Assembly (NCBI GenBank): GCA_017455585.1
Contig: JAFSZU010000028.1
Location: 3,220 to 67,219 of the forward strand
Length of the DNA stretch: 64,000 nucleotides
Source of the DNA: Bacteroidaceae bacterium
Lineage (GTDB): Bacteria; Bacteroidota; Bacteroidia; Bacteroidales; Bacteroidaceae
Reading direction: 5' to 3'
Shown here: in pieces, positions 6,471 to 41,844 of the stretch
How the letters are laid out: each line of letters starts with the position of its first letter
Position numbering within the stretch: the stretch's first letter is position 1
Notes under the pieces: model-generated
The model's input: only the letters and a program-made list of their open reading frames with translations
Database searches by the model: none
What the model was told of the DNA's origin: nothing
Made by a program: the position numbers and the translations under genes

Positions 6471-9400
6471 TTATCTTTTCTTCGGGTTCTTGTTGAAGTG
6501 CCAGACGGCGTGGAGCATGACGTAGTGGGGGAGGGAGCGGTACCAGGTGACGGTGCGGCCCTGGGCATTGATGCTGTAGTCGATGGGCGACAGCTGGTGC
6601 AGGAGGTCGAAGGCCTGGAGACTGAGGATGAACCTGCCCTTTGCCAGGGACTGGCTGAGGGAGGCGTTGACAACGAAGTTGTTTCGGTTGAGGTCGGCTG
6701 TGCCGTAGCCGCGACGGCTGAACATGGTGCCGTCGGCGGCGAGGGTGAGGCCTCCGAACCTGGTGCCCCAGAGGGCGGGTGTGGTGTAGGTGGCTTCGAG
6801 TCCGTACTGGAAGTCGAGGGCGGAAAGGGAAGACCCACCCCCTGCCCCTCCCGTGAGGGAGGGGAGTGGCTGCGCAGAGTGCCGCCAGTTGATTGACCCC
6901 ACAGCGCGGACGTTCAAGGTCTTGCGGTTGTAGCGGATGTTCGCTCCGCTGTTGAGACCGAGGGTATTCACGGTGTTGACACTGCTCTCGTTTTCGCCCT
7001 CCAGCAAGGCGTGGTCCTTGGAATGATTCCAGTCTGCACCTGCGTCGAGATGCCACGTCCAGTAGCGCTTCTCGCCGATGGTGCGGTTGGTGCCGAAGTT
7101 GGCGCGGGCGGCGTAGGCGCCGCTGATGTTCATGGGTTTGTAGGTGCTGATGCCGGTGGCGGGGTCGTAGGTCAGGGACTGTGCGATGTCGCGATGGTGG
7201 TAGTCGAAGGAGGCAGAGAGGTTGTAGGAGTCGTTTCGCGGCCCGGTGCTGTCATAGTATCTGATGTTGAAGGTCGTCTTTGCCGTGGGTTTCAGGTCGG
7301 GGTTGCCCAGCTTGACGATGAGGGGCTGGCTGTCGTCGCGGAAGGTGATGCGGTCCAGCAGGAGGGTGCGCTCCTGGCTGAAGCCGACATTGAAGTTGAG
7401 GTCTCGCCGCCCGCCTTTCCACACGTTGCGATAGCGGAACGTGGCTTTAGGCAGGAACACGGTCTGGCGTGCCAGCGTGTCCAGCGTGCCGCGGTGGTAG
7501 TGGAGGCGTTCGCCGGACAGCGGCGTGCCCACCTCCAGCGCAAACCGCTGGTAGCTGATTTTGGCGTGGAACTGCGGATGCACATAGTAGGCGTTCTTGT
7601 AGAACATGAGACCCACGTCGTTGCTCCAGTCGCGGTCGCGGCTGTCATAGGAGTTCGCGGCATCGGTGATGGCGGTCAGGGCGTCAAGCTGCGAGGGGAG
7701 GAGGGGGGACAGGGAGGTGTCCTCGGCGGGAAAACCGCCGAGCACCAACGCATCGGGCTGTGAAGGACTGCCGGGCACCAACGGGGAGGTACCTTCGGGA
7801 GCGCTCGGCTTTGCCGCTTCGCTTTGCGAAGAACCCTCGGGAACGGTAACGGGGTGGTAGAGGTAGTCGCGGTTGTGCTGGCGGCGGCTGAAGAACCCGT
7901 CGCTGATGCCTATGCGCAGGGCGTTGGGCAGTTCCCATTGGTATCCCATGCGGCCGAGAAACCATGTGCTGCGGTTGAAGAGCGTGTTGGAGTTGTGGGT
8001 GGCTCCCCCATTCTCCTCCGAGGGGGTGGCCGTTCTTGTTTCATACCTTGTCGCACGCTCGCTCTCGTCGTTGCTGTGTTCAAAGTGGAAGAAGTATTCT
8101 AAATGCTTCTTGTCCTTGCCCACATTGAAGGATCCCTGAACATCGAATATAGCATTCCACGCCCGCCCCTCGCTGACGCCCACGGTGCGCTGGCTGACGG
8201 TGAGGCTGTCGCTCCACTGGTCGAAGGCGGAGTTGAACGAGCCGTCGCGACTGGCGTAGCTGTAACGGGCCAGGGAGTAGAGATAGAAGGGCTTGGACAG
8301 CGACAGCGTGTTGTTCAGGCTGAGCCTGCGGTTGCCCGCGCGGTTGAAGGACTCGGTGACGGACGTGGGTGTGCAGCCGTCGATGAACTGTTCGCGGCGC
8401 TGCTGCACGGTCTGCTCGTCGGTCGAAGAGGTGTAATCAGCGCTGAATGTCTCCTTCAGTTTGTCGCCCTTGGTCTGGTAGTTGAGTTCTCCGGCCACGC
8501 TGCGCGTCGTCAGCAGCGATCGCGGCTGGCGCGCCGGGTTCCACTGGTCGGACTGCCCGATATGGCGACCCTCGTTGACGTTATTCGCGTTGGCCAGGAG
8601 CGTGAAGCGCAGACGGTCGGTGAAGCCGAGGAGGAAGCCACGGGCAAGCCACCGCTCCTGAGTGCCTCCTGCCGCTTCTACATTGCCGATGTAGCCTTGG
8701 CTGTATTCGTCCTTCAGGTTCACGTCCATCACATAGCGGCGCGGCTCCACGTCGTAGCCCAGTGCCACGCTCTTGTCGGTCTGCTTCTCATAGACCTTCA
8801 GGTTCTTCACGGTGTAGTACGGCAGGTTCTCCAACAGCACCTTCTTGTTGCCGCCGAAGAACGAGCGGGAGCCGAGCAGCAGCTCATCCACCTTGCGCCC
8901 GTTGACGAATATCTCGCCGTCGACGTTCATGGTCACGCCCGGCAGCTGGCGGATGAGGTCGTCGAGCATGGAGCCGTCGGGCAGCCGGAAGGCCGTGGCG
9001 TCGTAGATGAGCGTGTCGCCGCGGTAGAACATCTTGATCTTGGTGGCCGTGACGGTCACCTCACGCATGGTCTTGGTCGTACCGCGGCGCATCTTCAATG
9101 TGGGCACTTCCACACCGTCCTCAGGCAAGGGACGGGGGATGGTCACCCGTTGCCACACGTCGTCGTAGCCCTCCTGGCTGGCGCGGACGAGGTACTGCGA
9201 CTCGGCGGCACTCACTTCGGCGTTGAACTGTGCCCGAACCATCTTCATACCGCTTCCGTAGAAGACAACGATTTGTGCGGAATCCACCACCACGCTGCTG
9301 TCCGCGCGCAGGATGGAAACCTTTGCATAGGGCAGCGGCATCTCCAGGAAACCGTCCTCCACACAGCCTGAGAGGTGCACCGTCTTGCCTGTGAGGTCTC

Positions 9401-9716
9401 GTTCAGGCTTGTACTGTACAAAGATCTGCTTGCCCCTCGTCTTCACCTTCACGGGCTGTCCCTTGCATACCCGCGCCACCGCCTTGTCGGCTCTGAGATT
9501 CTTGGACGGCCGTGCCGAGACGCGCAGGTGTTCCAGATTGTTGTGGATGAAGTGGATGGCGTATTCTGTCTGCGCTGTTGCCAAAGAGTCAAGGGCAGTG
9601 GCGAGGGAAGACTCTTCCCCCGCCCTCCCTTGTAGGGAGGGAGAGGTTACTTGTGCGGATAGGGGAAATAACGCTGTCGCAAGGACATATATAATAAGGT
9701 ATAACCGTTTCATCAC
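6471..9716 (-). CDS. outer-membrane beta-barrel receptor (TonB-dependent-receptor-like), module 2
   Basis: 1081-aa paralogue of 1994-5176 with the same layout: signal peptide MMKRLYLIIYVLATALFPLSAQ and plug-like VTVTATKIKMFYRGDTLIYDATAFRLPDGSMLDDLIRQLPGVTM. Confidence 0.75.
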   Translation of the reverse strand: MMKRLYLIIYVLATALFPLSAQVTSPSLQGRAGEESSLATALDSLATAQTEYAIHFIHNNLEHLRVSARPSKNLRADKAVARVCKGQPVKVKTRGKQIFVQYKPERDLTGKTVHLSGCVEDGFLEMPLPYAKVSILRADSSVVVDSAQIVVFYGSGMKMVRAQFNAEVSAAESQYLVRASQEGYDDVWQRVTIPRPLPEDGVEVPTLKMRRGTTKTMREVTVTATKIKMFYRGDTLIYDATAFRLPDGSMLDDLIRQLPGVTMNVDGEIFVNGRKVDELLLGSRSFFGGNKKVLLENLPYYTVKNLKVYEKQTDKSVALGYDVEPRRYVMDVNLKDEYSQGYIGNVEAAGGTQERWLARGFLLGFTDRLRFTLLANANNVNEGRHIGQSDQWNPARQPRSLLTTRSVAGELNYQTKGDKLKETFSADYTSSTDEQTVQQRREQFIDGCTPTSVTESFNRAGNRRLSLNNTLSLSKPFYLYSLARYSYASRDGSFNSAFDQWSDSLTVSQRTVGVSEGRAWNAIFDVQGSFNVGKDKKHLEYFFHFEHSNDESERATRYETRTATPSEENGGATHNSNTLFNRSTWFLGRMGYQWELPNALRIGISDGFFSRRQHNRDYLYHPVTVPEGSSQSEAAKPSAPEGTSPLVPGSPSQPDALVLGGFPAEDTSLSPLLPSQLDALTAITDAANSYDSRDRDWSNDVGLMFYKNAYYVHPQFHAKISYQRFALEVGTPLSGERLHYHRGTLDTLARQTVFLPKATFRYRNVWKGGRRDLNFNVGFSQERTLLLDRITFRDDSQPLIVKLGNPDLKPTAKTTFNIRYYDSTGPRNDSYNLSASFDYHHRDIAQSLTYDPATGISTYKPMNISGAYAARANFGTNRTIGEKRYWTWHLDAGADWNHSKDHALLEGENESSVNTVNTLGLNSGANIRYNRKTLNVRAVGSINWRHSAQPLPSLTGGAGGGSSLSALDFQYGLEATYTTPALWGTRFGGLTLAADGTMFSRRGYGTADLNRNNFVVNASLSQSLAKGRFILSLQAFDLLHQLSPIDYSINAQGRTVTWYRSLPHYVMLHAVWHFNKNPKKR
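6831..6878. repeat. GC-rich hairpin element inside receptor-2 CDS
   Basis: AGACCCACCCCCTGCCCCTCCCGTGAGGGAGGGGAGTGGCTGCGCAG. This is a near-consensus copy. Confidence 0.8.
7719..7750. repeat. CGG hairpin type 1 in receptor-2 CDS
   Basis: GTCCTCGGCGGGAAAACCGCCGAGCACCAACG. Confidence 0.65.
7828..7854. repeat. PEG box (encodes PVTVPEGS) in receptor-2 CDS
   Basis: GAAGAACCCTCGGGAACGGTAACGGGG. Confidence 0.7.
9609..9650. repeat. GC-rich hairpin element in receptor-2 N-terminus
   Basis: AGACTCTTCCCCCGCCCTCCCTTGTAGGGAGGGAGAGGTTAC. Confidence 0.65.
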
Positions 9717-9737
9717 TCAATCAATTTTAGAAGGTGA

Positions 9738-9775
9738 CTACTCCTTCCCTTTGAGGGAAGGTGAGGGGAGGGTCT
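9738..9775. repeat. GC-rich hairpin element forming the last codons and stop of anti-sigma-2
   Basis: CTACTCCTTCCCTTTGAGGGAAGGTGAGGGGAGGGTCT. The CTA at 9738-9740 is the TAG stop on the minus strand. Confidence 0.65.
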
Positions 9776-10319
9776 TAACAAACACAGTGTCTCTTTCTTC
9801 CGTCACCTGTAAACCGTCGAACTCATTGAGCATGGTGATGAACGTCGCCAGAGAATCCTCGCGGTCCCACGTGATGGTGAAGCGCAGGTTGCGCGATGCC
9901 TCGTCGAGGAACTGCACCTGCTGCTTGTAGTGCGCCGCCACCACAGAGAGAATGCTGTCCAAGCGGACGTCGGAGAAACGGACGGGCGAAGCCCCCCGTA
10001 GCCCCCCGGTGGGGGGCGTTTGAAGACTGCCAACCTTTTCATCCCCCACTGGGGGATTATAAGGGGTCAGGATTTGTATGCTTGCCCACGCCAGCGCGCC
10101 GAGGAAGACGGCGGCGATGAGGATGGCAGCCATGCGGCGGTAACGATTGAGTCTAAGGAGGAACGGATTTTCGGATGCAGTCCCCCTCTCTTGCGTCCTC
10201 AGTTCCAGAGACTTCTCCATCAGTTGATCTACAAAGTCCTCGGAGTGTGGTGACGATGGCGGTGTGATGCGGCGGAGGGCATCACGCAGGTCGGAATGAG
10301 TGTTGTTCATTGTTCTCAA
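9738..10319 (-). CDS. anti-sigma factor (single TM, FecR_C-like), module 2
   Basis: Paralogue of 5173-5793 (AAILIAAVFLGALAWASIQIL; FSDVRLDSILSVVAAHYKQQVQF). The start could be the ATG at 10310 (MNNTHSDL). It overlaps the 3' end of the sigma gene. Confidence 0.6.
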   Translation of the reverse strand: MRTMNNTHSDLRDALRRITPPSSPHSEDFVDQLMEKSLELRTQERGTASENPFLLRLNRYRRMAAILIAAVFLGALAWASIQILTPYNPPVGDEKVGSLQTPPTGGLRGASPVRFSDVRLDSILSVVAAHYKQQVQFLDEASRNLRFTITWDREDSLATFITMLNEFDGLQVTEERDTVFVKTLPSPSLKGKE

Positions 10320-10914: not shown

Positions 10915-10979
10915 GGAATCTGACGCTGCGACACACCTTTTTCACAAACTTTAAGTTTTATATCCTCGTCTATGAACTG

Positions 10980-11014
10980 AAAAGCCCCGCTGCATCATTA
11001 TGACGCAACGGGGC
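10980..11014 (-). terminator. intrinsic terminator after AGE epimerase gene
   Basis: 15-bp stem GCCCCGTTGCGTCAT-A-ATGATGCAGCGGGGC (two G-U pairs) followed by TTTTC on the minus strand. Confidence 0.65.
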
Positions 11015-11074
11015 AGGATGTCTATGCGTACAACTGTTCTTGTCGTTACTGTGTTCGGAGGGAGAGAGAACAGT

Positions 11075-12307
11075 TTATGAGCGTGACGCAAGGTCTTCGA
11101 GAATCTTCCAGACGTTGAGGAGGCCGCGGGGGACGTGGAAGCAGCCTTTCCACTTGCCGCCCTTGAGGGGCAGGAGAACTTCGCCCTGGCGGTTGAGATA
11201 ACCATACCATTCGGGATAGTCGGGGTCGCGGAAATGGGTCCAGGTGTAGTCGTGAACGCGCTGGAACCAATCGAGACAGCGCTGGTCGCCCGTGAGTTGA
11301 TAGCCCTTGATGAGGGAGATGAGGGTCTCGAGGTGCACCCACCAGAGCTTCTGGTCCCATTCGAGTTCATGGCGCGGGTGGCCGAGTCGGTCCATGAAGT
11401 AGAAGATGCCGCCGAACTCCTTGTCCCAACCGTATTCGACTTCCTGCAGACAGATATCGACCGCTTTCTGGATGAGCTCGGGACGGTTGAGACGCTTGCC
11501 CAGGTCCATGACGAACCACATGGCCTCGATGGCGTGGCCGGGATTGAGCTTGCGACCGTCGAAGCAATCGACGAGGTTGCCGTCCTTGCCCAGGGCTTCC
11601 ACGATGAGACCGAGTTCAGGACGATAGAAGACATCCAAGACCTCGTGCAGGCAGTCGTCGATGGCTTTCTGCAGGAAGGCGGGGTCGAGGAGGGATTCTA
11701 TCTCCAATGAGACATTGCAGAGGATCATGGGGAGGTCGAAGGTCTTTAGGGCACGGGCACCAGGTGAGGCTTTTGACCATTTGCCCTTGGGGTTATCGAC
11801 CTTGGAGAGAACGATGTCGAAGGTGCGACGGGCAATGGAAGCGTACTCGGTGGAGAGCTCAGCGGCGGGGAAACCGCCGCATACCAATGAGGGCGAAGCT
11901 TTGGCGGCAGTGGCGAGGGCAATGCTCAATTGTCCGAAGGCGATGGTGGCGAAGGTGTAGGAGAAGATGTTGTAGGGCTCCACGAGGGGATGGCCTTCAC
12001 GGTCGAGGGCAAAGTACCAGTTGAGGTTGCCGTCGTGACCGTGCTTCTTCAGGAACTCGGCACCCTGAACAGCGGCATCGAGCCATTCCTGACGGGGCTC
12101 CACGGTGTTGTAGAGTTTGGAAAACATCCATACCTCGCGGCCTTGCAGCCAGATGAACTTGTCGGTGTCATAAACTGAGCCGTCTCGGTCGAGGCAGGTG
12201 AAATAGCCGCCAAATTCGGTGTCCTGGGACTTATTGAGCCAGAAGGGAACAACCCTATCAAGTAATTCAGAGCGATATTGCTCCGCCAATTGTTTGAAAT
12301 CTATCAT
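11075..12307 (-). CDS. N-acylglucosamine 2-epimerase (AGE / renin-binding-protein family)
   Basis: VPFWLNKSQDTEFGGYFTCLDRDGSVYDTDKFIWLQGREVWMFSKLY and WWVHLETLISLIKGY are typical AGE-family blocks. It sits beside nanA and a sialate transporter. Confidence 0.8.
   Translation of the reverse strand: MIDFKQLAEQYRSELLDRVVPFWLNKSQDTEFGGYFTCLDRDGSVYDTDKFIWLQGREVWMFSKLYNTVEPRQEWLDAAVQGAEFLKKHGHDGNLNWYFALDREGHPLVEPYNIFSYTFATIAFGQLSIALATAAKASPSLVCGGFPAAELSTEYASIARRTFDIVLSKVDNPKGKWSKASPGARALKTFDLPMILCNVSLEIESLLDPAFLQKAIDDCLHEVLDVFYRPELGLIVEALGKDGNLVDCFDGRKLNPGHAIEAMWFVMDLGKRLNRPELIQKAVDICLQEVEYGWDKEFGGIFYFMDRLGHPRHELEWDQKLWWVHLETLISLIKGYQLTGDQRCLDWFQRVHDYTWTHFRDPDYPEWYGYLNRQGEVLLPLKGGKWKGCFHVPRGLLNVWKILEDLASRS
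11857..11889. repeat. CGG hairpin type 1 in AGE epimerase CDS
   Basis: GCTCAGCGGCGGGGAAACCGCCGCATACCAATG. Encodes ..VCGGFPAAELS.. Confidence 0.6.
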
Positions 12308-12324
12308 ATAAGTATTGTGTTAAG

Positions 12325-15216
12325 TTATTCTTTAGGAAGGGTTTTCCACGTGAGTCCGGGTTGCTCCTTGTCTTGCGGGATGAAGATGCTGAGGATGAGG
12401 GCAACGAGGACGCTGACGAGCATGGAGACGAAACCGAAGAGGAGGAAGTTGGCCTGGGTGCAGAAGTTCATATAGAAGACGGTGGCTGTGCCGCAGAGGA
12501 AACCGATGAGGGCGGCACGGGAACCGATGCGTGGGAAGAAGATGCCCATGAGGAAGAGGCCGCCGATGGCACCGCTGAGGAGACCGAGGATGGTGTTGAA
12601 GTAGTCGAGGAGCGACTGGATGTCCACGGTGGCCATCAACCAGGCGATGGCCATGCCGATGAGACCGGCACAGATACCGGCGATGCGGGCGGTGCGGACG
12701 GAGGAGGTGGAACCCTCGGGAACAGTGACAGGACGGCGGAGGGTTGTCCACTTCGACCATAAATCTACGGTAAAGGCGGTGGAGATAGAGTTGATGTTGG
12801 AGGCGATGGTGGACATCGTGGCGGCGAAGACGGCGGCGATGAGGAGACCGGCGAGTCCTGCGGGCAACTGGCTCATCATGAAGAAGGGGAAGATGGCATC
12901 GCCCTTGGCCATCGTGATGTCCAGCTCGGCGGGATGGGTTTTGAAGAAGGTGTAGAGACCTGTGCCGATGGTGAAGAAGGCGATGGTGACGATAACGGAC
13001 ATGAGGCCGTTGGTCAGGATGCCGCGGGCGGCACTCTTCTCGTCGGAGGTGGTCAGGTAGCGCTGGATGACGGTCTGGTCGCTGGTGTAGGAGATAAGGT
13101 TATTGGCCAGACCACCGAGGATGACCACCCACCACGTGGCATTGACGAAGTCGAAGGGATTTTCCGAATTGAAAAGGAAAAGGCGGAACTTGTCGTGATC
13201 GGTGGCTATCTGCCAGAAGTCCGAAGCACCATTGTCGCCTGTATTGACAATGAGATAGACGGCAGCCAAGATGGCACCGCCCACAAGGATAATTCCCTGA
13301 ATGACATCGCCCCAGACGACCGCTTCCACACCACCCATCGTACAGTAAAGGATGGTGATGAGAGCCATCAAGGCTATACAAATATAGATATTGATACCCG
13401 TAACAGCTGTCATCGCCAAGGACGGAAGGAAGAGCACGAGGGCTGTGCGCGCCACCATGAAGACGATGAAGAGGATGCTGGCCATGAGGCGCGTGGCGCT
13501 GTTGAAGCGGCGTTCCAGATATTCATAGGCGGTGGTCACGTTCAGGCGACGGAAGAAGGGCAAATAATATTTGATGACGGGGAAGGACACCAGCAGGATG
13601 CAGATCTGCATGGGGTAGTAAGTCCAGTCGGTGGCGTAGGCCTTGGCGGGGATACTCATATAGGTAATGGCAGAAAGCATGGTGGCGAAGATGCTGATGC
13701 CAGCCGCCCACCAGGGGATGCGGCCGCCGCCCTTGAAGAAGTCTTCAGAAGAATTCGAGGCGCGCTTCATGAAGTAGTAGCCCAGATAGACCATGCCTAA
13801 CAGGTAGAGGATGAGCACTGTCCAGTTCAACCAGCCGAAGTGGGCGGTGTAGGTGATATCCACGCGGGTGACATCGGAAGAGCGGACACCGGGTTTCTCC
13901 TCGCCGTTGATAACGAGGAGGGAGACGGCGGACGAACCGCCGCCCACAGAGCCCAAGGCAGACGATGGCATGGGCACCAGGCCAGCACCGGCACGGGCGA
14001 TGAGGGGGCTGTCAAAGACCTCGGCCCACGAATCGGTGACGGTATGATAGACAAGAATGCTGCGGCGGAACTGGTACCAGGCGGGTTGCTGGGTCATGTA
14101 ATAGTGCATTTCCTCGCGGAGGTTGGCCAGACGCTCTGCGGTCTGGGTGGTGTCTGAGAGGAGGGCTCCGCGCTGGAGAGCGCCTTCAAAGATGCGCTTG
14201 TTCACACCGCCGAAGCAGAGGATATGGGCGGCACCGGAGGGGATGGCAGAGGCACCGACCAAAGACCCCTCATCTCCCCGTAAGGGGAGACTTTCGTTTC
14301 CACTCGTCTTCACTGCGCAGCCACTCCCATCCCTTACGGGAGGAGTTTGGGGGTGGGTCTTTATCAGACTTGTCGCCAACCAATCTCCTTTCCTTGGGTC
14401 ATAATAAACACCGTTGGTGACAGCTTTCCCATAGCGAGGGTCATAGCCGCCGAGGAGGTAGAAGTTGCTGCCGATAGCGCCTTTCTGCACGGCTGCGGCA
14501 GGTTGCACGCGGGCAGGGCCTGGCATATCGGGCAGCTCTTCCCAGGCAGCTCCTGTCTGTGTGTCGAACCAGGCAGAGGGTAGCGGCCATTTCAGGCGGA
14601 AGGCCTTGTGGTTGGCTACTCCATTGTGCAGACCACCAGCGATATAGATAAAGCCATCACCGTAGGCGGCAGCGAAGTTGTCGAGAGAAACAGGCAATGA
14701 TGGCAAATCCCGGCTAATGGCCTCGCCACTCGTTCCAAGGGTCAGGAGAACTGCAAAGTCCTCGCTCTTCTTACCGTCTGCCGTGCCGCCCAAACAGACA
14801 ACACCCTCGGACGTGGTGACGCTGGCACCGTAGGCTAACGCACAAGGCAGGGAGCCGGCACGCCACCAATAAGTGTCAGAATCTGAAAGGCTTATTGCAT
14901 AAATGTCTGTGTAGAAGACCTTTTGGCCACCCTCAGATGCTGGGATGTCTGGGAAGTTGCAGCCACCAGCCACCAAAACACGGTTGAAAGGCATCAAGAA
15001 ATCTTTTGGAACAAACCCAGCAAAGGAACCACTCACGCCCTGACCGCCAAATGCAGAGAGAGCCGGGACGGGAGTGAAGGAAGCGTTGTTGAAGCGGTGG
15101 GAAGACCTGCCCCCCTGCCCCTCCCTTGTAGGGAGAGGAGTAGAATCATTTGCAAATGAGAAACTTGATAGGAGAATCGCCAAAGCGAAAAGAGACATGA
15201 TTTTTTTCATAATCAC
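12325..15216 (-). CDS. fusion protein: N-terminal Kelch-type cyclically-permuted mutarotase (NanM-like) + C-terminal sodium:solute symporter (SSS family)
   Basis: 963 aa. Residues ~1-450 carry signal-peptide and Kelch-like blocks (VLVAGGCNFPD.., FIYIAGG, FYLLGGY, ILCFGGV). Residues ~455-963 are polytopic SSS-like (FFKGGGRIPWWAAGISIFATMLSAITYMSIPAKAY). Confidence 0.75.
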   Translation of the reverse strand: MIMKKIMSLFALAILLSSFSFANDSTPLPTREGQGGRSSHRFNNASFTPVPALSAFGGQGVSGSFAGFVPKDFLMPFNRVLVAGGCNFPDIPASEGGQKVFYTDIYAISLSDSDTYWWRAGSLPCALAYGASVTTSEGVVCLGGTADGKKSEDFAVLLTLGTSGEAISRDLPSLPVSLDNFAAAYGDGFIYIAGGLHNGVANHKAFRLKWPLPSAWFDTQTGAAWEELPDMPGPARVQPAAAVQKGAIGSNFYLLGGYDPRYGKAVTNGVYYDPRKGDWLATSLIKTHPQTPPVRDGSGCAVKTSGNESLPLRGDEGSLVGASAIPSGAAHILCFGGVNKRIFEGALQRGALLSDTTQTAERLANLREEMHYYMTQQPAWYQFRRSILVYHTVTDSWAEVFDSPLIARAGAGLVPMPSSALGSVGGGSSAVSLLVINGEEKPGVRSSDVTRVDITYTAHFGWLNWTVLILYLLGMVYLGYYFMKRASNSSEDFFKGGGRIPWWAAGISIFATMLSAITYMSIPAKAYATDWTYYPMQICILLVSFPVIKYYLPFFRRLNVTTAYEYLERRFNSATRLMASILFIVFMVARTALVLFLPSLAMTAVTGINIYICIALMALITILYCTMGGVEAVVWGDVIQGIILVGGAILAAVYLIVNTGDNGASDFWQIATDHDKFRLFLFNSENPFDFVNATWWVVILGGLANNLISYTSDQTVIQRYLTTSDEKSAARGILTNGLMSVIVTIAFFTIGTGLYTFFKTHPAELDITMAKGDAIFPFFMMSQLPAGLAGLLIAAVFAATMSTIASNINSISTAFTVDLWSKWTTLRRPVTVPEGSTSSVRTARIAGICAGLIGMAIAWLMATVDIQSLLDYFNTILGLLSGAIGGLFLMGIFFPRIGSRAALIGFLCGTATVFYMNFCTQANFLLFGFVSMLVSVLVALILSIFIPQDKEQPGLTWKTLPKE
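12709..12732. repeat. PEG box in SSS-transporter CDS
   Basis: GGAACCCTCGGGAACAGTGACAGG. Encodes RPVTVPEGST. Confidence 0.7.
14263..14360. repeat. GC-rich hairpin element, double-ended copy, inside NanM::SSS CDS
   Basis: AGACCCCTCATCTCCCCGTAAGGGGAGA ... CTGCGCAGCCACTCCCATCCCTTACGGGAGGAGTTTGGGGGTGGGTCT. Confidence 0.8.
15103..15143. repeat. GC-rich hairpin element in NanM::SSS N-terminus
   Basis: AGACCTGCCCCCCTGCCCCTCCCTTGTAGGGAGAGGAGTAG. Confidence 0.7.
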
Positions 15217-15233
15217 TCTTTTAATAAGGTTAC

Positions 15234-15270
15234 TACTCCCCTCGGCTCTTGGAGAGGTGGGGGTGAGGCT
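15234..15270. repeat. GC-rich hairpin element, intergenic (nanA / transporter)
   Basis: CTACTCCCCTCGGCTCTTGGAGAGGTGGGGGTGAGGCT. Confidence 0.65.
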
Positions 15271-15295
15271 TGAAGAGGCTTAGTAGAGGCTTCTA

Positions 15296-16243
15296 TTACT
15301 TATTGCAGTGGTTGAAGAAGTCGATGGCTTCGAGCTCGGCTTTCAGGCGGGCTTCCTCTTCGGGAGTGATGTTCTGAAAGGGTGTGCGGTTGGGACCCAA
15401 GTCGAGGCCGATGAGCTTCATGATGCGCTTGCCGCCGACAATGTTGCCGCGGAAGTGGCAAATGACATCGATGACGTCCTGCGCGTAGTTCTGCAAGGAA
15501 CGGGCCTTCTCCAGATCACCTTCTTCCCAGGCCTTGATGATGCCCGTGAGGCAGCGTCCGTTGTAGTTGGTGGTGCCGCCGATGCCGCCCTGTGCGCCGC
15601 CCATGGCAAGGCACGGAAGGATGGTCTCGTCCTGACCGTGCAGCATGTCGAACTTACCGTCCTTATATCGGCGGCAGCGGTTGTACTCGTAGAGGCTCTC
15701 AAACGTATATTTGATGCCGGCAAAGTTGGGAATGCGGCCATCCACGGCTTGCAAGAAGTCATACATGGAGAGGAAGGCACCGTTGAACGCTGGGATGTGG
15801 TAGAAATAGAAGGGAAGCTTGGGTGCTCCACAAGCGATTTCCTCGCAGTACTTCACCAGTTCCTCGATGCGTCCCACCTTGGGGAAGGGAGGTGCCATGG
15901 CGCCGATGCCGAAGGCTCCGATGGCCTGTGCGTGCTCGGCGAGGTTGCGGCTGCTGCGGACGCAGGTGCTGCCCACGTGAACGATGACCTTGAAGCCCTC
16001 GGGAGAACCTTCGGGAATAGTAACGGGAAGTTTTTTCACGGCATCCATCCACGCCTCGGCGATGGCCTTGCGCTCGTCCTCGGTGAGCATATAGCCCTCT
16101 CCGCTGGAGCCGTTGATAAACACACCTTTAAGACCATTGCGCTGAAGCAATGCTGCATACTGTGGGATAACAGACAGGTTGATGCTGCCGTCGGCGTGCA
16201 TCGGGGTAAATGGGGCGTCAATGAGACCTTTGATTTTTTCCAT
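15296..16243 (-). CDS. nanA: N-acetylneuraminate lyase (DHDPS/NAL family)
   Basis: GLIDAPFTPMHADGSINL..GVFINGSSGEGYMLTEDERKAI..VIVHVGS..YFYHIPAFNG is typical of the NAL family. The adjacent AGE and transporter genes support the call. Confidence 0.85.
   Translation of the reverse strand: MEKIKGLIDAPFTPMHADGSINLSVIPQYAALLQRNGLKGVFINGSSGEGYMLTEDERKAIAEAWMDAVKKLPVTIPEGSPEGFKVIVHVGSTCVRSSRNLAEHAQAIGAFGIGAMAPPFPKVGRIEELVKYCEEIACGAPKLPFYFYHIPAFNGAFLSMYDFLQAVDGRIPNFAGIKYTFESLYEYNRCRRYKDGKFDMLHGQDETILPCLAMGGAQGGIGGTTNYNGRCLTGIIKAWEEGDLEKARSLQNYAQDVIDVICHFRGNIVGGKRIMKLIGLDLGPNRTPFQNITPEEEARLKAELEAIDFFNHCNK
15995..16027. repeat. PEG box (double) in nanA CDS
   Basis: GCCCTCGGGAGAACCTTCGGGAATAGTAACGGG. 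Encodes LPVTIPEGSPEG. Confidence 0.7.
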
Positions 16244-21673: not shown

Positions 21674-21710
21674 GTTTAAGGTTTAAAAGTTTAAGGTTTA
21701 AAGTTGAAAG
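21674..21710. repeat. AT-rich tandem repeat (GTTTAAGG-like) upstream of cls
   Basis: gtttaaggtttaaaagtttaaggtttaaagttgaaagg. Confidence 0.6.
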
Positions 21711-23095
21711 GATTTATTATTTGCTTTCTGTTGTGCATCTCTGTTTCCGCTTGGACGCAGGAAACGGAGGTGGATGCCTCACGTCTGCTGCAGCAGGTGT
21801 TGACGGAGGAACTGGGCACGCGCTTCAGCAGCAACAACAGCGTGGTGCTGCTCTACACAGGACAGGACAAGTTTGATGCCATGTTCAATGCCATCCGTCA
21901 GGCCAGGCACTATGTTCATCTCGAATACTTTAACTTTCGCAACGACAGCATCGGCCTCGCGCTCTTTGACCTCCTGGGGCAGAAAGCCGCAGAGGGCGTG
22001 GAGGTGCGGGCCATGTTCGACAGCTTTGGCAACAGCAGCAATGATTCACCCCTGCTGAACCGTCACCTCAAGGCCATCAGGGCCACAGGCGTGCATGTCG
22101 AGGAGTTCGACCCCATCAAGTTCCCCTGGATCAATCACGCCTATCACCGTGACCACCGCAAGATTGTGGTCATCGACGGTGCCGTGGCCTATACTGGCGG
22201 CATGAATGTGGCCGACTACTACATCCACGGGCGACCCGAATACGGTGAGTGGCGCGATATGCACATGGAACTCACGGGGGATGTCGTGGCCGAGTATGAA
22301 CGCCTCTTCGCCCGCATGTGGTGGGAACAGACCGGCGAAATTCTCCTCAATGAGATCTATGCACCATCCCCTTCAGAAGCCGTAACGCCCCCCCTTGCAC
22401 CTCCTTCACCCTCCGTCGCTTCCTCCCCGGCTGCTCCTTTGTCTTCGTTGGTGCCCGTCGGTTTCCCCGACGGGAATCTCCCTTCCCTTGCCCGTTCCTC
22501 TTCCGCCTTCACCCTGCTGCCAGACACCACCCCCACAGCCGGCAGCAAGACCATCGGCGTGGTGGAACGCGGCCCCCACGACCATGCCAAAGACATGCGC
22601 AAGGCCTATGTGGCCGCCATCGATGCCGCCCAGCATCATATCCAGATTGTCAACCCCTATCCCACCAATGTCAAGAGCGTGCGACGCGCCTTGCGCCGTG
22701 CCCTCAAACGTGGTGTGCGCCTGGAAATCATGGTCTCTGCCAAGAGCGATGTGCCCGTCACCCCCGACGTCGTGGCTCTGGAGATGAAGAAACTGGCCAA
22801 GCGCGGTGCCGAAGTCTATTATAACCAGACCGGCTTCCACCACTCCAAGGTGATGATGGTGGATGGCAGCTACTGCACCGTGGGCAGCACCAATCTGGAT
22901 GCGCGCAGCTTCTGCTTCGACTATGAGGTCAACAGCTTTATCTTCGATGCCGCCACCACGCATCAGTTGCAGCACATTTTTGAACAGGACAAGCAGAACT
23001 GCACCACCTTCACGGTCGAGGACTACCGCCGCACGCAGAACTTCGGCCACCGCCTCACAGGCCACTTCTTCAGCCTCTTCCGCGGCTTCTTCTAA
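21704..23095 (+). CDS. cls: cardiolipin synthase / phospholipase D family protein
   Basis: Two HKD motifs (HRDHRKIVVIDG and HHSKVMMVDGSYCTVGSTNLD). There is an apparent TTG start and no in-frame ATG near the N-terminal hydrophobic segment. Confidence 0.8.
   Translation: MKGFIICFLLCISVSAWTQETEVDASRLLQQVLTEELGTRFSSNNSVVLLYTGQDKFDAMFNAIRQARHYVHLEYFNFRNDSIGLALFDLLGQKAAEGVEVRAMFDSFGNSSNDSPLLNRHLKAIRATGVHVEEFDPIKFPWINHAYHRDHRKIVVIDGAVAYTGGMNVADYYIHGRPEYGEWRDMHMELTGDVVAEYERLFARMWWEQTGEILLNEIYAPSPSEAVTPPLAPPSPSVASSPAAPLSSLVPVGFPDGNLPSLARSSSAFTLLPDTTPTAGSKTIGVVERGPHDHAKDMRKAYVAAIDAAQHHIQIVNPYPTNVKSVRRALRRALKRGVRLEIMVSAKSDVPVTPDVVALEMKKLAKRGAEVYYNQTGFHHSKVMMVDGSYCTVGSTNLDARSFCFDYEVNSFIFDAATTHQLQHIFEQDKQNCTTFTVEDYRRTQNFGHRLTGHFFSLFRGFF
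22451..22477. repeat. CGG hairpin type 2 (inverted orientation) in cls CDS
   Basis: GTGCCCGTCGGTTTCCCCGACGGGAAT. Confidence 0.55.
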
Positions 23096-32038: not shown

Positions 32039-32041
32039 TAA

Positions 32042-36501: not shown

Positions 36502-36508
36502 TTATCTT

Positions 36509-37237: not shown

Positions 37238-37351
37238 CTTGCCACGTCGTATGATACAGACTCTCCTGATATAACAACAAACACCCTTTTACGTATAACA
37301 CAAAACACACCTGCCTCATGGCAGGTGTGTTTTGTGTTATACGCAGGATAC

Positions 37352-39859
37352 CTATTTCAGCCAGCGGGCGAGCCAGTTGAAGTAGGTGCGCTGCCAGAGG
37401 ATGCCGTTCTGGGGATGGAGCACCCAGTGGTTCTCGTCGGGATAGAGGAGCAACTCGGCTTCGATGCCTCTCATGCGTGCGGCGTTGAAGGCGCTCATGC
37501 CCTGGGTGGCGTTGATGCGGTAGTCCTTTTCGCCGTGGATGCAGAGAATGGGGGTGTCCCACTGGTCAACAAAGCGGTGAGGAGAGTTCTCATAGGTTCT
37601 CCTGGCGTTGGCTGTCATGTCCTTGTTCCAGTAGGCATCGTCATATTCCCAGTTACTGAACCAGTTCTCCTCGGTCTCTGTATACATGGCTTCGAGGTTG
37701 AAGGCGCCGTCGTGAGCGATGAAGCACTTGAAACGCTTGTCATGGTGACCGGCAAGGTAATAGACGCTGAAGCCGCCAAAGCTGGCTCCCACGGCACCCA
37801 GACGGTCACGGTCCACGTATGGGAGGGAGTCGCACGCATCATCGATGGCACTGAGGTAGTCCTTCATGCACTGGCCTGTCCAGTCGCCGGAGATTTCCTC
37901 CAGCCACTCCTGCCCGAAGCCGGGGAGGCCGCGGCGGTTGGGGGCAATGATGACGTAGCCCTGTGAGGCCATGATGTCGAAGGTCCAGCGGTAGCTCCCG
38001 AACTGTGAGACGGGTGACTGGGGGCCGCCTTCGCAGAAGAGCAGGGTGGGGTATTTCTTCGATGGGTCGAAGTGGGGGGGCTTGATGACCCAGTAGAGGA
38101 GCTGCTGGCCATCGGTGGTGGGGCACCAGCGGGGCTCGGAGGTGCCGGGGGCGAGTTGGGAAAGGATGTGGTCGTTCTCGGCGGTGAGGCGGGTGATTTC
38201 TGCAACGGCGGTGCCGTTGCCTGCGCCAAGAGAAGAAGCAGCATTGGAGGCTGTGGTAGTGGGAACGGTAACCAGATAGAGGTCGGCGGGATGGAAGAAG
38301 TCGTGACGCTCCATGAGGAGGGTGGCGCCAGCCTTCTCCCCTCCATCACGGGCGGGGTCGGGGGTGGGTCTTGGGATGAGTTGCAAATTGCCCCAGTCGG
38401 CCTGGTCATTGGTGAGCTGTGTGACTTCGCCCTTCAGGTTGGTGCGGTAGAGATTGACGGTGGCGTGCCAGACACCTATATAATATAAGGTATAGCTGTC
38501 ATCGTCCCATACGAAGTCGTCAACGTTGCTGTCAAAGGACTCGGTGACATATACTTTGGCGTTCTCTATTGGCTCATTGGCGAGCTGCTGCAGGTCATAG
38601 ACGCAGAGACGCTGGCGGTCTGCCTCGTAGCCGTCACGCTTCATAGAGAGCCAGGCCACGTAGCGGCCATCGGGCGAGAACTTGGGGTTCTGGTCGTAGC
38701 CCACATTGCAGCCCTTCAAATCCTGGGCCTGGTTGATGTACTGGTTTTTGAGAGACTTGGTGGGATTGCAGGAGTTATCAGGACTGCCGACGAATCCTCC
38801 ATCGGGTACAACGTCAAACTCACAACCGTTCTTGCAGAGGTTCCTGGTCTTGTTCATGTCGCCGCTCTCCACATCAAAGAGGAAGATGTCGGAGTCGGTG
38901 CTGATGCTGTAGTCAATCCCGGTCTTGCAGCGGCAGGTGAAAGCGATGAACTTGCTGTCGGGGCTCCAAGCGAGCTGCTCGATGCCGCCGAAAGGTTCCA
39001 TGGGACATTCATAAGGCTCACCTTCGAGGATGTCGAACTCCTTACCCGTGGCCAGGTCAAGGACGAAGGGATGCGGGATGCTCTCGACATAGTGATCCCA
39101 GTGTCGGTACATGAGGTCTGTGATGACGCGGCCAGTGCTCTTGGGCAGGTCGGCGGGGCGCTCCTGGATGATGTCGTGGAAAGGCACGGACTTGATAATG
39201 ATGACCTTTTTCTGGTCGGGTGAGAAGAGGAAACCATCTACGCTGCCGCCGGTCTTGGTGAGTTGCTTGCGGGACTTGCCTTTTGCGGTCATGGTCCAGA
39301 TGTCGCCTTTGAGGTTGAAGGCGATGCGGTTGTTGTCCAGCCAGACAGGGTCGCTGCCGAGACCGAGGAAGGTGGGGGATGTTTCCGCGCTAATAAGCGC
39401 GGCACCCGACCCTGCGGCGGTTGAGGATGCAGGAGATCCTGCGGCGGCTGGGGAGGCAGGGCTTGTTTCAGGCTCGGCGGCGGTTGAGGATGCAGGAGAC
39501 CCTGCGGCGGTTGAGGAGGTTGTTCCCCGTTCTGCGGCGGCTGAGGAGGCAGGAATATCCAGACAGTAGAGGAGGGTGTTGCTGCGGTCTTCGGGGACGC
39601 TGTAATAGGTGACCTGATAGGCGACTTTGGAGCCGTCGGGGGAAACGGCGTAGGAGCCGATGCGTCCCATGGCCCAGAGGGCTTCGGGCGTGAGGGTGTC
39701 GCTCTGGAGCTGGATGTTGCTGCGCGTGATGACGGGCTTCTGTTCTTTCTGGCAGGCGGTCATGATGGCGATGATGAGGAGGAGGAGGAAAAGCCTCACC
39801 CCCGCCCCCTCTCCGAGTGAAGAGGGGAATAGATGGTTGTGGATAAAGGAATGTTTCAT
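37352..39859 (-). CDS. S9-family serine peptidase (beta-propeller + alpha/beta-hydrolase)
   Basis: Lipobox IMTAC. Nucleophile elbow GASFGGFSV. C-terminal ..IHGEKDYRI..HWV catalytic Asp/His region. N-terminal WD40-like propeller. Confidence 0.75.
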   Translation of the reverse strand: MKHSFIHNHLFPSSLGEGAGVRLFLLLLIIAIMTACQKEQKPVITRSNIQLQSDTLTPEALWAMGRIGSYAVSPDGSKVAYQVTYYSVPEDRSNTLLYCLDIPASSAAAERGTTSSTAAGSPASSTAAEPETSPASPAAAGSPASSTAAGSGAALISAETSPTFLGLGSDPVWLDNNRIAFNLKGDIWTMTAKGKSRKQLTKTGGSVDGFLFSPDQKKVIIIKSVPFHDIIQERPADLPKSTGRVITDLMYRHWDHYVESIPHPFVLDLATGKEFDILEGEPYECPMEPFGGIEQLAWSPDSKFIAFTCRCKTGIDYSISTDSDIFLFDVESGDMNKTRNLCKNGCEFDVVPDGGFVGSPDNSCNPTKSLKNQYINQAQDLKGCNVGYDQNPKFSPDGRYVAWLSMKRDGYEADRQRLCVYDLQQLANEPIENAKVYVTESFDSNVDDFVWDDDSYTLYYIGVWHATVNLYRTNLKGEVTQLTNDQADWGNLQLIPRPTPDPARDGGEKAGATLLMERHDFFHPADLYLVTVPTTTASNAASSLGAGNGTAVAEITRLTAENDHILSQLAPGTSEPRWCPTTDGQQLLYWVIKPPHFDPSKKYPTLLFCEGGPQSPVSQFGSYRWTFDIMASQGYVIIAPNRRGLPGFGQEWLEEISGDWTGQCMKDYLSAIDDACDSLPYVDRDRLGAVGASFGGFSVYYLAGHHDKRFKCFIAHDGAFNLEAMYTETEENWFSNWEYDDAYWNKDMTANARRTYENSPHRFVDQWDTPILCIHGEKDYRINATQGMSAFNAARMRGIEAELLLYPDENHWVLHPQNGILWQRTYFNWLARWLK
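38331..38371. repeat. GC-rich hairpin element inside S9 peptidase CDS
   Basis: GCCTTCTCCCCTCCATCACGGGCGGGGTCGGGGGTGGGTCT. Confidence 0.7.
39383..39411. repeat. CGCG hairpin box inside S9 peptidase CDS
   Basis: TTCCGCGCTAATAAGCGCGGCACCCGACC. Confidence 0.55.
39411..39565. repeat. in-frame 27-33-bp tandem repeats (CTGCGGCGGYTGAGGAGGCAGGA) in S9 peptidase CDS
   Basis: Five units encoding an A/S/T/P-rich tract (..STAAGSPASSTAAEPETSPASPAAAGSPASSTAAGSG..). Confidence 0.75.
39792..39832. repeat. GC-rich hairpin element in S9 peptidase signal-peptide region
   Basis: AGCCTCACCCCCGCCCCCTCTCCGAGTGAAGAGGGGAATAG. Confidence 0.65.
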
Positions 39860-39882
39860 TGTTAGTTAAGGGTTGGGCGGGT

Positions 39883-39915
39883 GGCCTCGGTGGGGAAACC
39901 ACCGAGCACCAACGG
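39883..39915. repeat. CGG hairpin type 1, intergenic (yidC / peptidase)
   Basis: GGCCTCGGTGGGGAAACCACCGAGCACCAACGG. Confidence 0.65.
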
Positions 39916-39918
39916 TGG

Positions 39919-41844
39919 TTATCTTTTTTGCTGGCGCTGCTGCTCGGCGGCCATCTTCTGGAGGGCTTCCAGGCGGGCAGCCATGCCGGATTGTTTCTTG
40001 GGATTATTGGCGTTCTTGGCGCGGTAGGCTTCGAGCTCGGCGAGGAGGCGACTGTCATTGGTGGTCTTGCGGAGCACCCACATGATGATGATGCTGGTGA
40101 GGCCGGAGAGGAAGTAGTAGTAGTTGAGGCCTGAGCTGTATGTGTTGAACATGAAGAAGAACATGATGGGCATGAGGTACATCATCCAGCGCATCATCTT
40201 CATGCTCTGTTCCTGCTCGGGCGACATCACGGCGTTCTGCTGCTGCTTCATGCTGATCCAAGTGTTGGCCACCTGCATCACACAGAAAAGAACGCAGAAG
40301 ATGCTGAGGTGGTCGCCGATGAGCCAGAGGTCTTTGCCCCAGTGGATGACATCGTCGTAGGCAGAGAGGTCATCGGCCCAGAGGAAGCTCTGTCCGCGCA
40401 GCTCGATAGCGTTGGGGACGAAGTTGAAGAGGGCCACCCAGATGGGCATCTGGATGAGCATGGGCAGACAGCCGCCCATGGGCGAGACGCCGTACTGGCT
40501 GTAGAGCTGCATCATCTCCTGCTGCTTCTTCATGGCATCTTCCTGCTTGGGGTACTTGGCGTTGAGCTGGTCGATTTTGGGCTTGAGGACTCTCATGCGG
40601 GCACTGGCCATGTAGCTCTTCTTGGTGGCGGGATAGACGAGGGCCTTGACGATGAGGGTCAGCAGCAGGAGGACAAGTCCCATGTGGAGTCCGAAGCCCT
40701 TGAGCCAGTCGAAGAGGTAGATGATGAACCAGCGGTTGATCCAGCGCACGATGGGCCATCCGAGATAGACGAGGTCTTCGAGTTCCAGGTCTTTGTCTGC
40801 GTTGATGCTGAGGTCATTGTGGGCTTTCAGGGTGTGGAAGTCATTGGGGCCGAAATACATTTGCAATTGGGTCGGTTGTGCGCCGGTGGGGTCGAAGGGT
40901 GTCTGGAGGGATGCCTCGTAGTTCTTCAGGTAGCCTTGTCCTTTCTTGTAGAGTTGTGATTTAAAGTGTGCGCCATGCATCTGCTGGTGGCTGATGAGCA
41001 CGGCAGAGAAGAACTGGTTCTTGAAGGCCACCCAGTCGATGGGTTCCTCGATGTCTTTCTCCTGATCCGAGGTCTCGCTCAGGTTCTTGGTCTTGCCGTC
41101 GGTGCGGTGGTAGCGGATGCAGGCGTAGCGCTGCTCAAAGTCAAAGCCTTTCTCGAGCTGGCGGGCACGGTCTGTCCATGCGATGTCGAGGGTCTTCATG
41201 GAGGGGGCGAAGAGGTTGGCGATGCCGCGGGCGGTGATGGTCATATCCACCATGTAGGCATCGGGGCGGAGGGTGTAGTCGATGTCGAGGGAGCCGCCGG
41301 GGAGGGGGAGGCGGAGGGTGGTGGATTGTCCCTCGGGAGAGCCCTCGGGCACAGTAACTGGCTGGAAGAAGAGGTCGGAGGTGACAATGTTCTCCTGCTT
41401 GGTGGCCAGCGAGAGAATCATCTGAGCGTCTTTGGCGCTGACGAGGTGGACGTTCTCCTTCTGCTGGTCTTTGTAGTTCTTGAGTTCGGCATCCTCGATG
41501 ATGCCGCCGCGGGTGTTGATGGTGAGTTTCACCAGGTCGTTCTCGAGGGTGATGCGCTCCTCGGTGCCTTGTGCTGCGGCGAAGAGGATGCTGGCGGAGT
41601 CTGGGACGAGATTGCCGGTGGAATCGGCAACGAGGCCGGCAGTGGCGGCGGAAGCGGTGGTGGTCCCGGCGGATGAACCGCCGGGCACGGTGCTCTGCGT
41701 TTCCTGCTGGGCGAGCTGTGCGGCGGCGATGGAGTCGCGTTCACGTTGTGCTTTGAGTTGTGCTTCTGAGGGGCGGCTGTACCACGAGAAGGCGATGAGC
41801 ACAGCGGCCATGAGGACGAATCCTGTGATGGTGTTTTTGTCCAT
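39919..41844 (-). CDS. yidC: membrane protein insertase YidC
   Basis: 641 aa with a large periplasmic P1 domain and a conserved C-terminal core (..MRVLKPKIDQLNAKYPKQEDAMKKQQEMMQLYSQYGVSPMGGCLPMLIQMPIW..). Confidence 0.9.
   Translation of the reverse strand: MDKNTITGFVLMAAVLIAFSWYSRPSEAQLKAQRERDSIAAAQLAQQETQSTVPGGSSAGTTTASAATAGLVADSTGNLVPDSASILFAAAQGTEERITLENDLVKLTINTRGGIIEDAELKNYKDQQKENVHLVSAKDAQMILSLATKQENIVTSDLFFQPVTVPEGSPEGQSTTLRLPLPGGSLDIDYTLRPDAYMVDMTITARGIANLFAPSMKTLDIAWTDRARQLEKGFDFEQRYACIRYHRTDGKTKNLSETSDQEKDIEEPIDWVAFKNQFFSAVLISHQQMHGAHFKSQLYKKGQGYLKNYEASLQTPFDPTGAQPTQLQMYFGPNDFHTLKAHNDLSINADKDLELEDLVYLGWPIVRWINRWFIIYLFDWLKGFGLHMGLVLLLLTLIVKALVYPATKKSYMASARMRVLKPKIDQLNAKYPKQEDAMKKQQEMMQLYSQYGVSPMGGCLPMLIQMPIWVALFNFVPNAIELRGQSFLWADDLSAYDDVIHWGKDLWLIGDHLSIFCVLFCVMQVANTWISMKQQQNAVMSPEQEQSMKMMRWMMYLMPIMFFFMFNTYSSGLNYYYFLSGLTSIIIMWVLRKTTNDSRLLAELEAYRAKNANNPKKQSGMAARLEALQKMAAEQQRQQKR
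41329..41361. repeat. PEG box (double) in yidC CDS
   Basis: TCCCTCGGGAGAGCCCTCGGGCACAGTAACTGG. Encodes QPVTVPEGSPEG. Confidence 0.7.
41663..41688. repeat. CGG hairpin type 2 in yidC CDS
   Basis: GTCCCGGCGGATGAACCGCCGGGCAC. Encodes ..TVPGGSSAGT.. Confidence 0.6.

Follow-up and report, generated by a model that had tools for sequence, protein, structure and literature searches.

A short box recurs in four genes of the window

The window, a 64,000-nucleotide (64-kb) stretch of a Bacteroidaceae bacterium (GenBank assembly GCA_017455585.1, contig JAFSZU010000028.1, positions 3,220–67,219), contains a short DNA box of 24–33 nt that recurs, in frame, within four of its genes. All four hosts are encoded on the − strand: an outer-membrane β-barrel receptor (host 1, 6471–9716; Pfam OMP_b-brl_3), a fusion of NANM (Kelch) and sodium:solute symporter domains within a sialic-acid locus (host 2, 12325–15216; Pfam NANM and SSF), a NanA-like lyase (host 3, 15296–16243; Pfam DHDPS family) and the membrane insertase YidC (host 4, 39919–41844; Pfam YidC_periplas and 60KD_IMP). 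The box belongs to a DNA-level repeat family that is associated with a family of Y1-fold, transposase-like proteins in related genomes.

Allowing up to two mismatches, CCNGTTACNGTNCCCGAGGG is matched four times in the window, always on the − strand and in the sense of the host gene; 0.02 matches are expected by chance, and none of 100 dinucleotide-preserving shuffles contained four or more. This confirms the original prediction that one box is present in four unrelated genes. Each copy is read as P-V-T-(V/I)-P-E-G-S. Copy 1 (CCCGTTACCGTTCCCGAGGGTTCT, 7830–7853, −; 24 nt, HPVTVPEGSS) is the exact family consensus without the 3′ hairpin arm, and copy 2 (CCTGTCACTGTTCCCGAGGGTTCC, 12709–12732, −; 24 nt, RPVTVPEGST) has a degenerate head, TCAC, and is likewise missing its 3′ arm. 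The two longer copies are 33 nt each: copy 3 (CCCGTTACTATTCCCGAAGGTTCTCCCGAGGGC, 15995–16027, −) encodes PVTIPEGSPEG in the peptide context LPVTIPEGSPEG, and copy 4 (CCAGTTACTGTGCCCGAGGGCTCTCCCGAGGGA, 41329–41361, −) encodes PVTVPEGSPEG in the context QPVTVPEGSPEG.

Scored with a position weight matrix derived from 76 copies of other genomes, the four window copies reach 30–43 bits (42.8 for copy 1). Nothing else on either strand of the window attains 8 bits by this matrix, and gapped local alignment over the window returned no further or decayed copy. Candidates at ~38300 and ~42760 score at chance level. By eye, a possible decayed second unit, CCCGAAGGTACCTCCCCGTT (PEGTSPLV), can be discerned at 7780–7799 (−), 30 nt downstream of copy 1; it resembles a tandem-array junction (CCCGAGGGTTCT abutting CCCGTT), is weak and is statistically inseparable from chance.

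An inverted copy had also been proposed within cls, at 22368–22388. Only the hexamer CGTTAC aligns there, with a local score of 12, and as scores of at least 20 arise ~14 times per shuffled window we discard this copy as noise. The cardiolipin-synthase-like (cls) open reading frame (ORF; 21704–23095, +) has a Pro/Ser-rich low-complexity stretch at 22360–22430 (APSPSEAVTPPLAPPSPSVASSP), unrelated to the box, which may be another lineage-specific loop insertion.

Box copies are polymorphic insertions in host loops

Comparison of the hosts with their relatives (loci outside the window are given by L numbers) reveals that insertion of the box is polymorphic, and that copies lie in loops. Across 120 NanA homologues, those of 90–93% identity read KDFEDFKVIVHVG, those of 94–96% read LPVPEGSPEGFK, and the LPVTIPEGSPEGFK form is found only in the window's own species. 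At the DNA level, the window loop is 27 nt longer than that of L081 and L083 (~92% identity), so that the insertion originally proposed for NanA is right in substance. A different form exists in L079 (94% identity), encoding a shorter LPVPEGSPEG without ACTATT. The NanA junction shares GAGG with the box (empty ...TTT GAG GAC versus the filled end ...CCC GAG GGC). Four assemblies of the window's species have identical boxes.

Copy 2 of the transporter is positioned in an SSF-domain loop that is hypervariable and, in L079, L083 and L002, free of the box. Here the junction shares GGTTC with the box (empty L083 GGT TCA ACC versus filled GAG GGT TCC ACC). The L002 transporter carries its boxes elsewhere, three of them arranged as 48-bp units within a Kelch-domain loop, and that of L081 has a variant box at a third position.

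In YidC, copy 4 is accommodated by a loop of the periplasmic P1 domain that varies in length. PEGS is missing from this P1 site in all 55 representatives (35–51% identity), and four other metagenome-assembled genomes (MAGs) have the same site filled, by between one and four tandem 24-bp units. Orthologue alignments of the three proteins therefore give empty sites in relatives for NanA and the transporter, and a variable loop for YidC. In the receptor, copy 1 falls within residues 523–685, a segment that cannot be aligned to the paralogue at 1994–5176.

Several features of these hosts stand apart from the box copies themselves. The two receptors (1994–5176 and 6471–9716, both −) are adjoining paralogues sharing 34% identity over the N-terminal 570 residues; the first carries its own ~30-residue insertion, PTPNPSRVGEEWLRTAKERIEALPLKVERGEGLRY, absent from the second. 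NanA, the NANM–SSF fusion and an N-acetylglucosamine 2-epimerase form a conserved sialic-acid utilization cluster (window 11075–16243; L075–L083), whose NANM–SSF gene has been struck by boxes at three positions in three lineages (window, L002 and L081). The window's Kelch loop (14263–14340), equivalent to the loop holding three boxes in L002, contains a 30-residue insertion (KTHPQTPPVRDGSG…SLPLRGDEGS); two segments of it, 14263–14286 and 14323–14340 (CCCGTAAGGGATGGGAGT and CCCTTACGGGGAGATGAGGGGTCT), have the look of decayed boxes and are indistinguishable from chance. In L077, from the same species, the NANM–SSF gene is called as two ORFs (841 and 48 residues) near its 3′ end (6772–6918); the split lies away from the box and reflects a frameshift variant or else an error in assembly.

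The box is dispersed in rumen Bacteroidales

We scanned one genome per species, a set that does not include the window's own genome, and found the box concentrated in ~11 rumen Bacteroidales/Prevotellaceae MAGs, where it occupies ~30 unrelated proteins and forms intergenic tandem arrays. One of these MAGs, RUI002, has 11 strict matches, both genic and intergenic. The remaining matches of the scan are ordinary family motifs that we treat as background, such as a Clostridia 2Fe-2S domain (INNIPVTVPEGSTILEAA) and a signal peptidase (FGPVTVPEGS). Sense copies are hosted by a GH88 protein, NrnA, a rhamnogalacturonan lyase, an S9 peptidase, a TonB-dependent receptor, an M13 peptidase, a class II aminoacyl-tRNA synthetase and a DUF349 protein; in cellular location, the hosts range from the cytoplasm through the inner membrane and periplasm to the outer membrane.

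Direct tandem arrays are common, with periods of 12, 24, 32, 33, 36 and 48 bp. Intergenic arrays are found at L036 171–240, L036 2640–2970 and L059 1711–1840; those of L036 comprise a 36-bp period upstream of a peptidase gene and ~80-bp units between two genes, and that of L059 has a 32-bp period between two co-directional genes. The periods of 32 and ~80 bp are not multiples of three. Copy number differs at an orthologous spacer, with four copies in L059 versus one, directly after the stop codon, in L070. Intergenic L023 6780–7060 is densely packed with shorter, related units (GGGACGGTAACGGGG(G)AGGCCCGAGGG, + strand) in which the TTAC head is mixed with half-stems; these may represent a degenerate or alternative version of the box element.

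Anatomy of the element

The conserved unit consists of TTAC, NGTN and then CCCGAGGG-TTCT-CCC(GA/TC)GGG. Across 37 non-seed copies TTAC (positions 4–7) is near-invariant and both N positions of TTAC-N-GT-N are variable. The first four bases of the box, CCCG, vary freely and therefore lie outside the element. Its head, TTAC, is separated from the stem by 4 nt, and is neither GTAG nor CGTC.

Two forms of the stem are present. In the TC form, CCCGAGGG-TTCT-CCCTCGGG (PEGSPSG; L020, L037, L049 and L070), the last 20 nt make a perfect 8-bp hairpin, a single box reaching −10.2 kcal/mol (z −4.4). The GA form, CCCGAGGG-TTCT-CCCGAGGG (PEGSPEG), is the one used in the window; its predicted minimum-energy structure is a stem with a tandem G·A mismatch.

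Conservation at the DNA level argues against peptide convergence

Over 19 long ORFs of the window, GTT accounts for 9% of Val codons, ACT for 7% of Thr, GGT for 21% of Gly and TCT for 12% of Ser. Each of the four nonetheless occupies its own position in three of the four window boxes, whose Ser is never AGC or AGT. In the 37 non-seed copies from other genomes, CCCGAGGGTTC is conserved down to synonymous third positions. There are also genome-specific signatures: GTG encodes the second Val in 12 of 16 RUI002 copies (including both in its own RAYT-like gene, described below), and GTT does so in 8/8, 9/11 and 8/8 copies of three other MAGs.

Rare codons shared between copies, the existence of non-coding copies and the presence of empty sites in relatives together identify the box as a DNA repeat, and not as a convergent peptide. 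The original prediction had favoured a mobile or templated DNA box over convergence, a reading that these results support. A diversity-generating retroelement, an intron, an intein and translational bypass were also considered and dropped, the insert being short, open in frame and also found in non-coding DNA.

A strong strand and frame bias accompanies the genic copies. Around 30 independent genic sites in Bacteroidales loci have the box on the sense strand and read it as PVTVPEGS. Leaving aside the RAYT-like genes, a single site is clearly antisense: the dihydrolipoyl-dehydrogenase-like gene of L022, which reads GPSGEPSGTVTG. The four intergenic sites, too, have the orientation of the genes beside them. 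The box is open in five of six frames and its antisense peptide, PSGEPSGTVTG, seems equally harmless, making selection on the peptide alone an unsatisfying explanation of the bias. The + strand of the window has a positive GC skew throughout (0.00 to 0.20), yet almost every long ORF is on the − strand. This makes the coding strand rich in C, and GC skew is consequently no guide to the direction of replication in the window.

It could be argued that the peptide itself matters, with PVTVPEGS(PEG) serving as a protease, glycosylation or sorting signal, or as a selected flexible linker. The use of one frame by nearly all genic copies agrees with such a role, as does the fact that the four window copies depart from the consensus 11 times, 10 of these at synonymous third positions. 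We nevertheless consider it very improbable. The intergenic arrays with periods that are not multiples of three lie outside any such function, the copies have rare codons in common, with conserved third positions in CCC-GAG-GGT-TCT, and the variable N positions of TTAC-N-GT-N coincide with the spacer of the DNA element. The same DNA also yields the antisense readings GPSGEPSGTVTG and ALGRTLGNGN. Hosts are drawn from every compartment, which argues against a sorting, protease or glycosylation motif, and include cytoplasmic NanA, a class II aminoacyl-tRNA synthetase, NrnA and the dihydrolipoyl-dehydrogenase-like enzyme; the same proteins of relatives (such as the ~92% identical NanA) do without the box.

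The orientation data could alternatively reflect a host-useful DNA signal, such as an uptake sequence, a Chi-like hotspot or a strand-orienting motif, enriched by selection or molecular drive and present in genes only incidentally. All four window copies being on one strand, the co-orientation of intergenic copies elsewhere with flanking genes and the lineage-specificity of the box would suit this idea, to which we give scant credence. Copies originate through insertion of 18–33 nt or as tandem arrays and not through point mutations in sequence already there, and there are only four of them in a 64-kb window. No known signal of this type sits as an inverted pair inside a transposase-like ORF. 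A search of 2.9 million viral contigs gave no match to the box, a result that is neutral and offers no support for a transfer-related signal.

A RAYT-like protein family contains paired boxes

Three MAGs encode box-bearing, mutually homologous genes whose products resemble REP-associated tyrosine transposases (RAYTs; REP, repetitive extragenic palindrome). These are found in L071 (3443–4654, −), L060 (5308–6309, +) and L044 (204–1739, −), and share the HUH motif MPDHIHLL followed by GYHDRI...RYMDENP. L085 likewise carries a box pair inside an ORF. The proteins match NCBIfam NF047646 (REP-associated tyrosine transposase) with E values of 4e-11 and 1e-10; a Pfam search of them returned nothing significant. 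Compared with PDB sequences, the family profile gives marginal matches (E 0.12–0.58), all of them to IS200/IS605 transposases. With an AlphaFold model as the Foldseek query, the top 30 PDB entries are all TnpA proteins of the IS200/IS605 group (ISDra2, IS608 and IS200) together with Escherichia coli TnpAREP (4ER8), at E values of 3e-6 to 4e-4 and target-normalized template-modelling (TM) scores of 0.58–0.72. DHIH and YMDENP are invariant in the family alignment.

The family comprises 2038 clusters at E ≤ 1e-5, and its association with the box is family-wide. Box-derived peptides are located between the HUH and Tyr motifs in 117 of the 119 members listed; in 100 of the 119 both arms are evident, an antisense ALGRTLGNGN followed by a sense VTVPEGSPEG. 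Mapped to the family member P0193, the pair is inserted after the helix 119–137 and before the strand 168–172, which places it between αC and β4. As DNA, the internal inverted pair folds back on itself, at −31.2 kcal/mol for L085 (z −8.0) and −35.1 kcal/mol for L071 (z −6.3). The spacer between the arms is often itself a tandem repeat and varies widely in length, with the proteins ranging from 355 to 492 residues; that of L044 (~700–1200) is built from ~8 tandem units encoding GQGGGTVNE-like peptides.

The family divides into two protein subclades that correspond to two box types, PEGSPEG and PE(V/A)SPSG (type B). The larger subclade has a variant pair, PSGxALGTVG ... GTVPE(V/A)SPSG, whose DNA is again a hairpin. 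Type-B boxes are also dispersed in other genes, in L081 and L088 and as a tandem array in L090; a metagenome scan for this type returned mainly unrelated G+C-rich hairpins of other phyla, the informative loci being L088, L090 and L093. Within genomes, the enzyme gene can be compared with dispersed copies: the two agree in RUI002 (GTG) and in mag972 (GTT), and RGIG8060 is mixed.

A further region of ~170 residues is conserved at the C terminus (L071, L060, L044 and P0121–P0240), with the motifs …LHLWIHDREYAAFGNLFLLKNP…VLVTPGISKGEQ…LPLIILQKEP…LLILAPW…. It has no Pfam match and no fold match. RAYTs described so far are considerably shorter proteins. The RAYT-like proteins apparently constitute an undescribed subfamily of Y1 HUH proteins.

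Candidate routes to dispersal

We favour, with a probability of roughly 0.6, a model in which the box is a lineage-specific REP-type short interspersed repeat of rumen/gut Bacteroidales related to Prevotella, its units being copied by the RAYT-like enzyme. We infer that this protein cleaves and mobilizes the box. As a HUH/Y1 single-strand-DNA transposase it would recognize and copy box units, with the in-frame inverted pair of its own gene folding as a long hairpin like that of a REPIN (REP doublet forming hairpins). New copies would land in single-stranded DNA, and replication slippage could then expand them to tandem arrays. Within genes, the survivors would be frame-keeping copies in tolerant surface loops, translated as the Pro/Gly/Ser/Glu-rich PVTVPEGSPEG and probably functionless for the host protein. 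The window copies are most likely old, fixed, translated singlets in tolerant loops; two are without a 3′ arm, and are therefore probably no longer mobile.

A number of observations weigh against this model. Both NF047646 scores lie below the curated cut-off of 80 bits (43 for the match at E 4e-11), and the AlphaFold model is of modest confidence (predicted local distance difference test (pLDDT) score of 62.8, with a core of 70–90). By tblastn, the window itself has no RAYT-like homologue. No boxes were seen flanking the RAYT-like genes, as they do in classical REPtrons, only internal ones. Co-occurrence of box type and enzyme type within a genome is drawn from three MAGs, one of which is mixed. 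The single GA-form box is a weak hairpin (−6.3 kcal/mol, z −0.9) that 38 of 200 shuffles equalled or bettered, the first 24 nt are all that window copies 1 and 2 retain, and the head stands 4 nt off the stem, unlike the GT[AG]G at the foot of REP/REPIN elements. Dispersed copies are singlets or direct tandems and not inverted doublets, which elsewhere are considered the mobile unit; inverted pairs were seen only inside RAYT-like genes. Finally, a ~30:1 bias for sense and frame is not predicted by random insertion into single-stranded DNA combined with mild selection, and the 4–5-nt microhomology at insertion junctions means that templated copying or gene conversion fits these sites at least as well.

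The last point leads to an alternative based on recombination and not transposition, in which microhomology-primed template switching or gene conversion, with slippage, spread the box, and the RAYT-like gene was merely an early tolerant host. Beyond the microhomology at the NanA (GAGG) and transporter (GGTTC) junctions, this would account for partial, length-variable copies (18–24 nt in the transporter and receptor; the L079 NanA lacking ACTATT) and for the frequency of direct tandem arrays, and genome-specific codon signatures fit concerted evolution. Set against this, microhomology of 4–5 nt can come from alignment ambiguity alone, and recombination leaves unexplained both the head-plus-hairpin form of the conserved part and an inverted pair held at one position in nearly all members of a 2038-cluster family, with its type tracking the subclade. 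On balance we judge a purely recombinational origin possible but unlikely.

A more specialized version of enzyme-driven copying would address the orientation bias. In this version, a REP/RAYT system has become adapted to coding sequences: insertion would be sense-strand-specific or transcription-coupled, the frame would have evolved to encode a harmless flexible linker, and the master inverted pair would be kept translated within the transposase ORF. We regard this as speculative and doubt it on present evidence. If true, a major rumen lineage would have an enzyme that drives both loop insertions and arrays of tandem linkers throughout its proteome, with strand and frame bias a property of the mechanism and not of selection only.

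Relationship to known repeat systems

Searches of the literature found neither the peptide string of the box nor any description of the box or of the RAYT-like subfamily, nor a study tying RAYTs to Prevotella in such a sense. Close precedents do exist. Quentin, Siguier, Chandler and Fichant (2018; PMC6006769) defined RAYT subclass 2.4, of Cyanobacteria and Bacteroidetes, whose unique feature is that REPs occur in frame within the transposase gene, in a stretch of very variable length that separates the HUH motif from the Tyr motif; they also mention reports of REPs inserted into unrelated genes. Di Nocera et al. (2013; PMC3733652) catalogued intragenic GTAG/CGTC REPs, equating some with the Rickettsia palindromic elements (RPEs). 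Since intragenic REPs and REPs inside RAYT genes have both been published, the phenomenon is already known in kind. To the RAYT-free account of the original prediction, our analysis adds the hairpin with its TTAC head, the association with a RAYT-like family and these published in-frame precedents.

The box is most akin to the REP/REPIN–RAYT systems (subclass 2.4; group 4 of Bertels), being a repeat of 20–40 nt with a conserved tetranucleotide head, a predicted imperfect hairpin and apparently many dispersed copies, of which the intergenic ones lie 3′ of genes with the same orientation. Its associated protein shows the HUH/Y1 fold and YxxxNP tyrosine motif of RAYTs and, as in subclass 2.4, in-frame REPs between the HUH and Tyr motifs, in a region of highly variable length. 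It diverges in its signatures, with DHIH / FQ or FE / YMDENP replacing the NH[IFV]H / WQ / YIxNNP of subclass 2.4, and in its size, with 355–490 residues including the ~170-residue C-terminal extension compared with ~194. The insertion point also differs, lying between αC and β4 in the RAYT-like family versus β3 and αC in subclass 2.4. Unlike classical REPs, dispersed boxes are mostly intragenic sense-strand singlets or direct tandems, and no flanking REPs are seen.

Rickettsia RPEs (Ogata and Claverie, 2000–2003) and intragenic REPs provide a second parallel, as selfish palindromic repeats that sit in frame within unrelated, still functional genes; they too occupy loops or linkers, add 10–30 residues, sometimes occur as dimers or clusters and are absent from the orthologues of relatives. 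RPE-1 is, however, 100–150 bp long, without a known transposase and restricted to Rickettsia, making the 24–33-nt box, which also differs in sequence, an analogue and not a member. Within the GTAG/CGTC families, which are otherwise extragenic, the published intragenic REPs form a minority, unlike box copies, which are mostly genic and in one frame.

The IS200/IS605 elements IS608 and ISDra2 give the best Foldseek match by fold, and have as their substrate a single-stranded DNA hairpin plus a tetranucleotide. TTAC is the target and cleavage site of IS608. Unlike these elements, the RAYT-like genes have no flanking left or right end and no tnpB, and the box unit has no coding capacity. Bacterial minisatellites, or variable-number tandem repeats (VNTRs), such as the mycobacterial interspersed repetitive units (MIRUs), resemble the box in their variable tandem number (one or four in YidC, and one or four in the L070/L059 spacer). 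Slippage alone, however, cannot put one unit at more than 30 unrelated loci.

Implications

The box accounts for puzzling identical insertions in the YidC, NanA, transporters, glycoside hydrolases and aminoacyl-tRNA synthetase of rumen/gut Prevotella-like bacteria, insertions that otherwise confuse alignments, phylogenies and structure predictions. Its presence and copy number vary in the manner of VNTRs, and insertions could thus be used as lineage or strain markers. In-frame, protein-coding repeats are here tied to a candidate enzyme, which the classical Rickettsia RPE never had. If the sense-strand, single-frame bias proves to be mechanistic, it would bear on how single-strand-DNA transposases choose their targets and on how selfish DNA generates variation in protein length.

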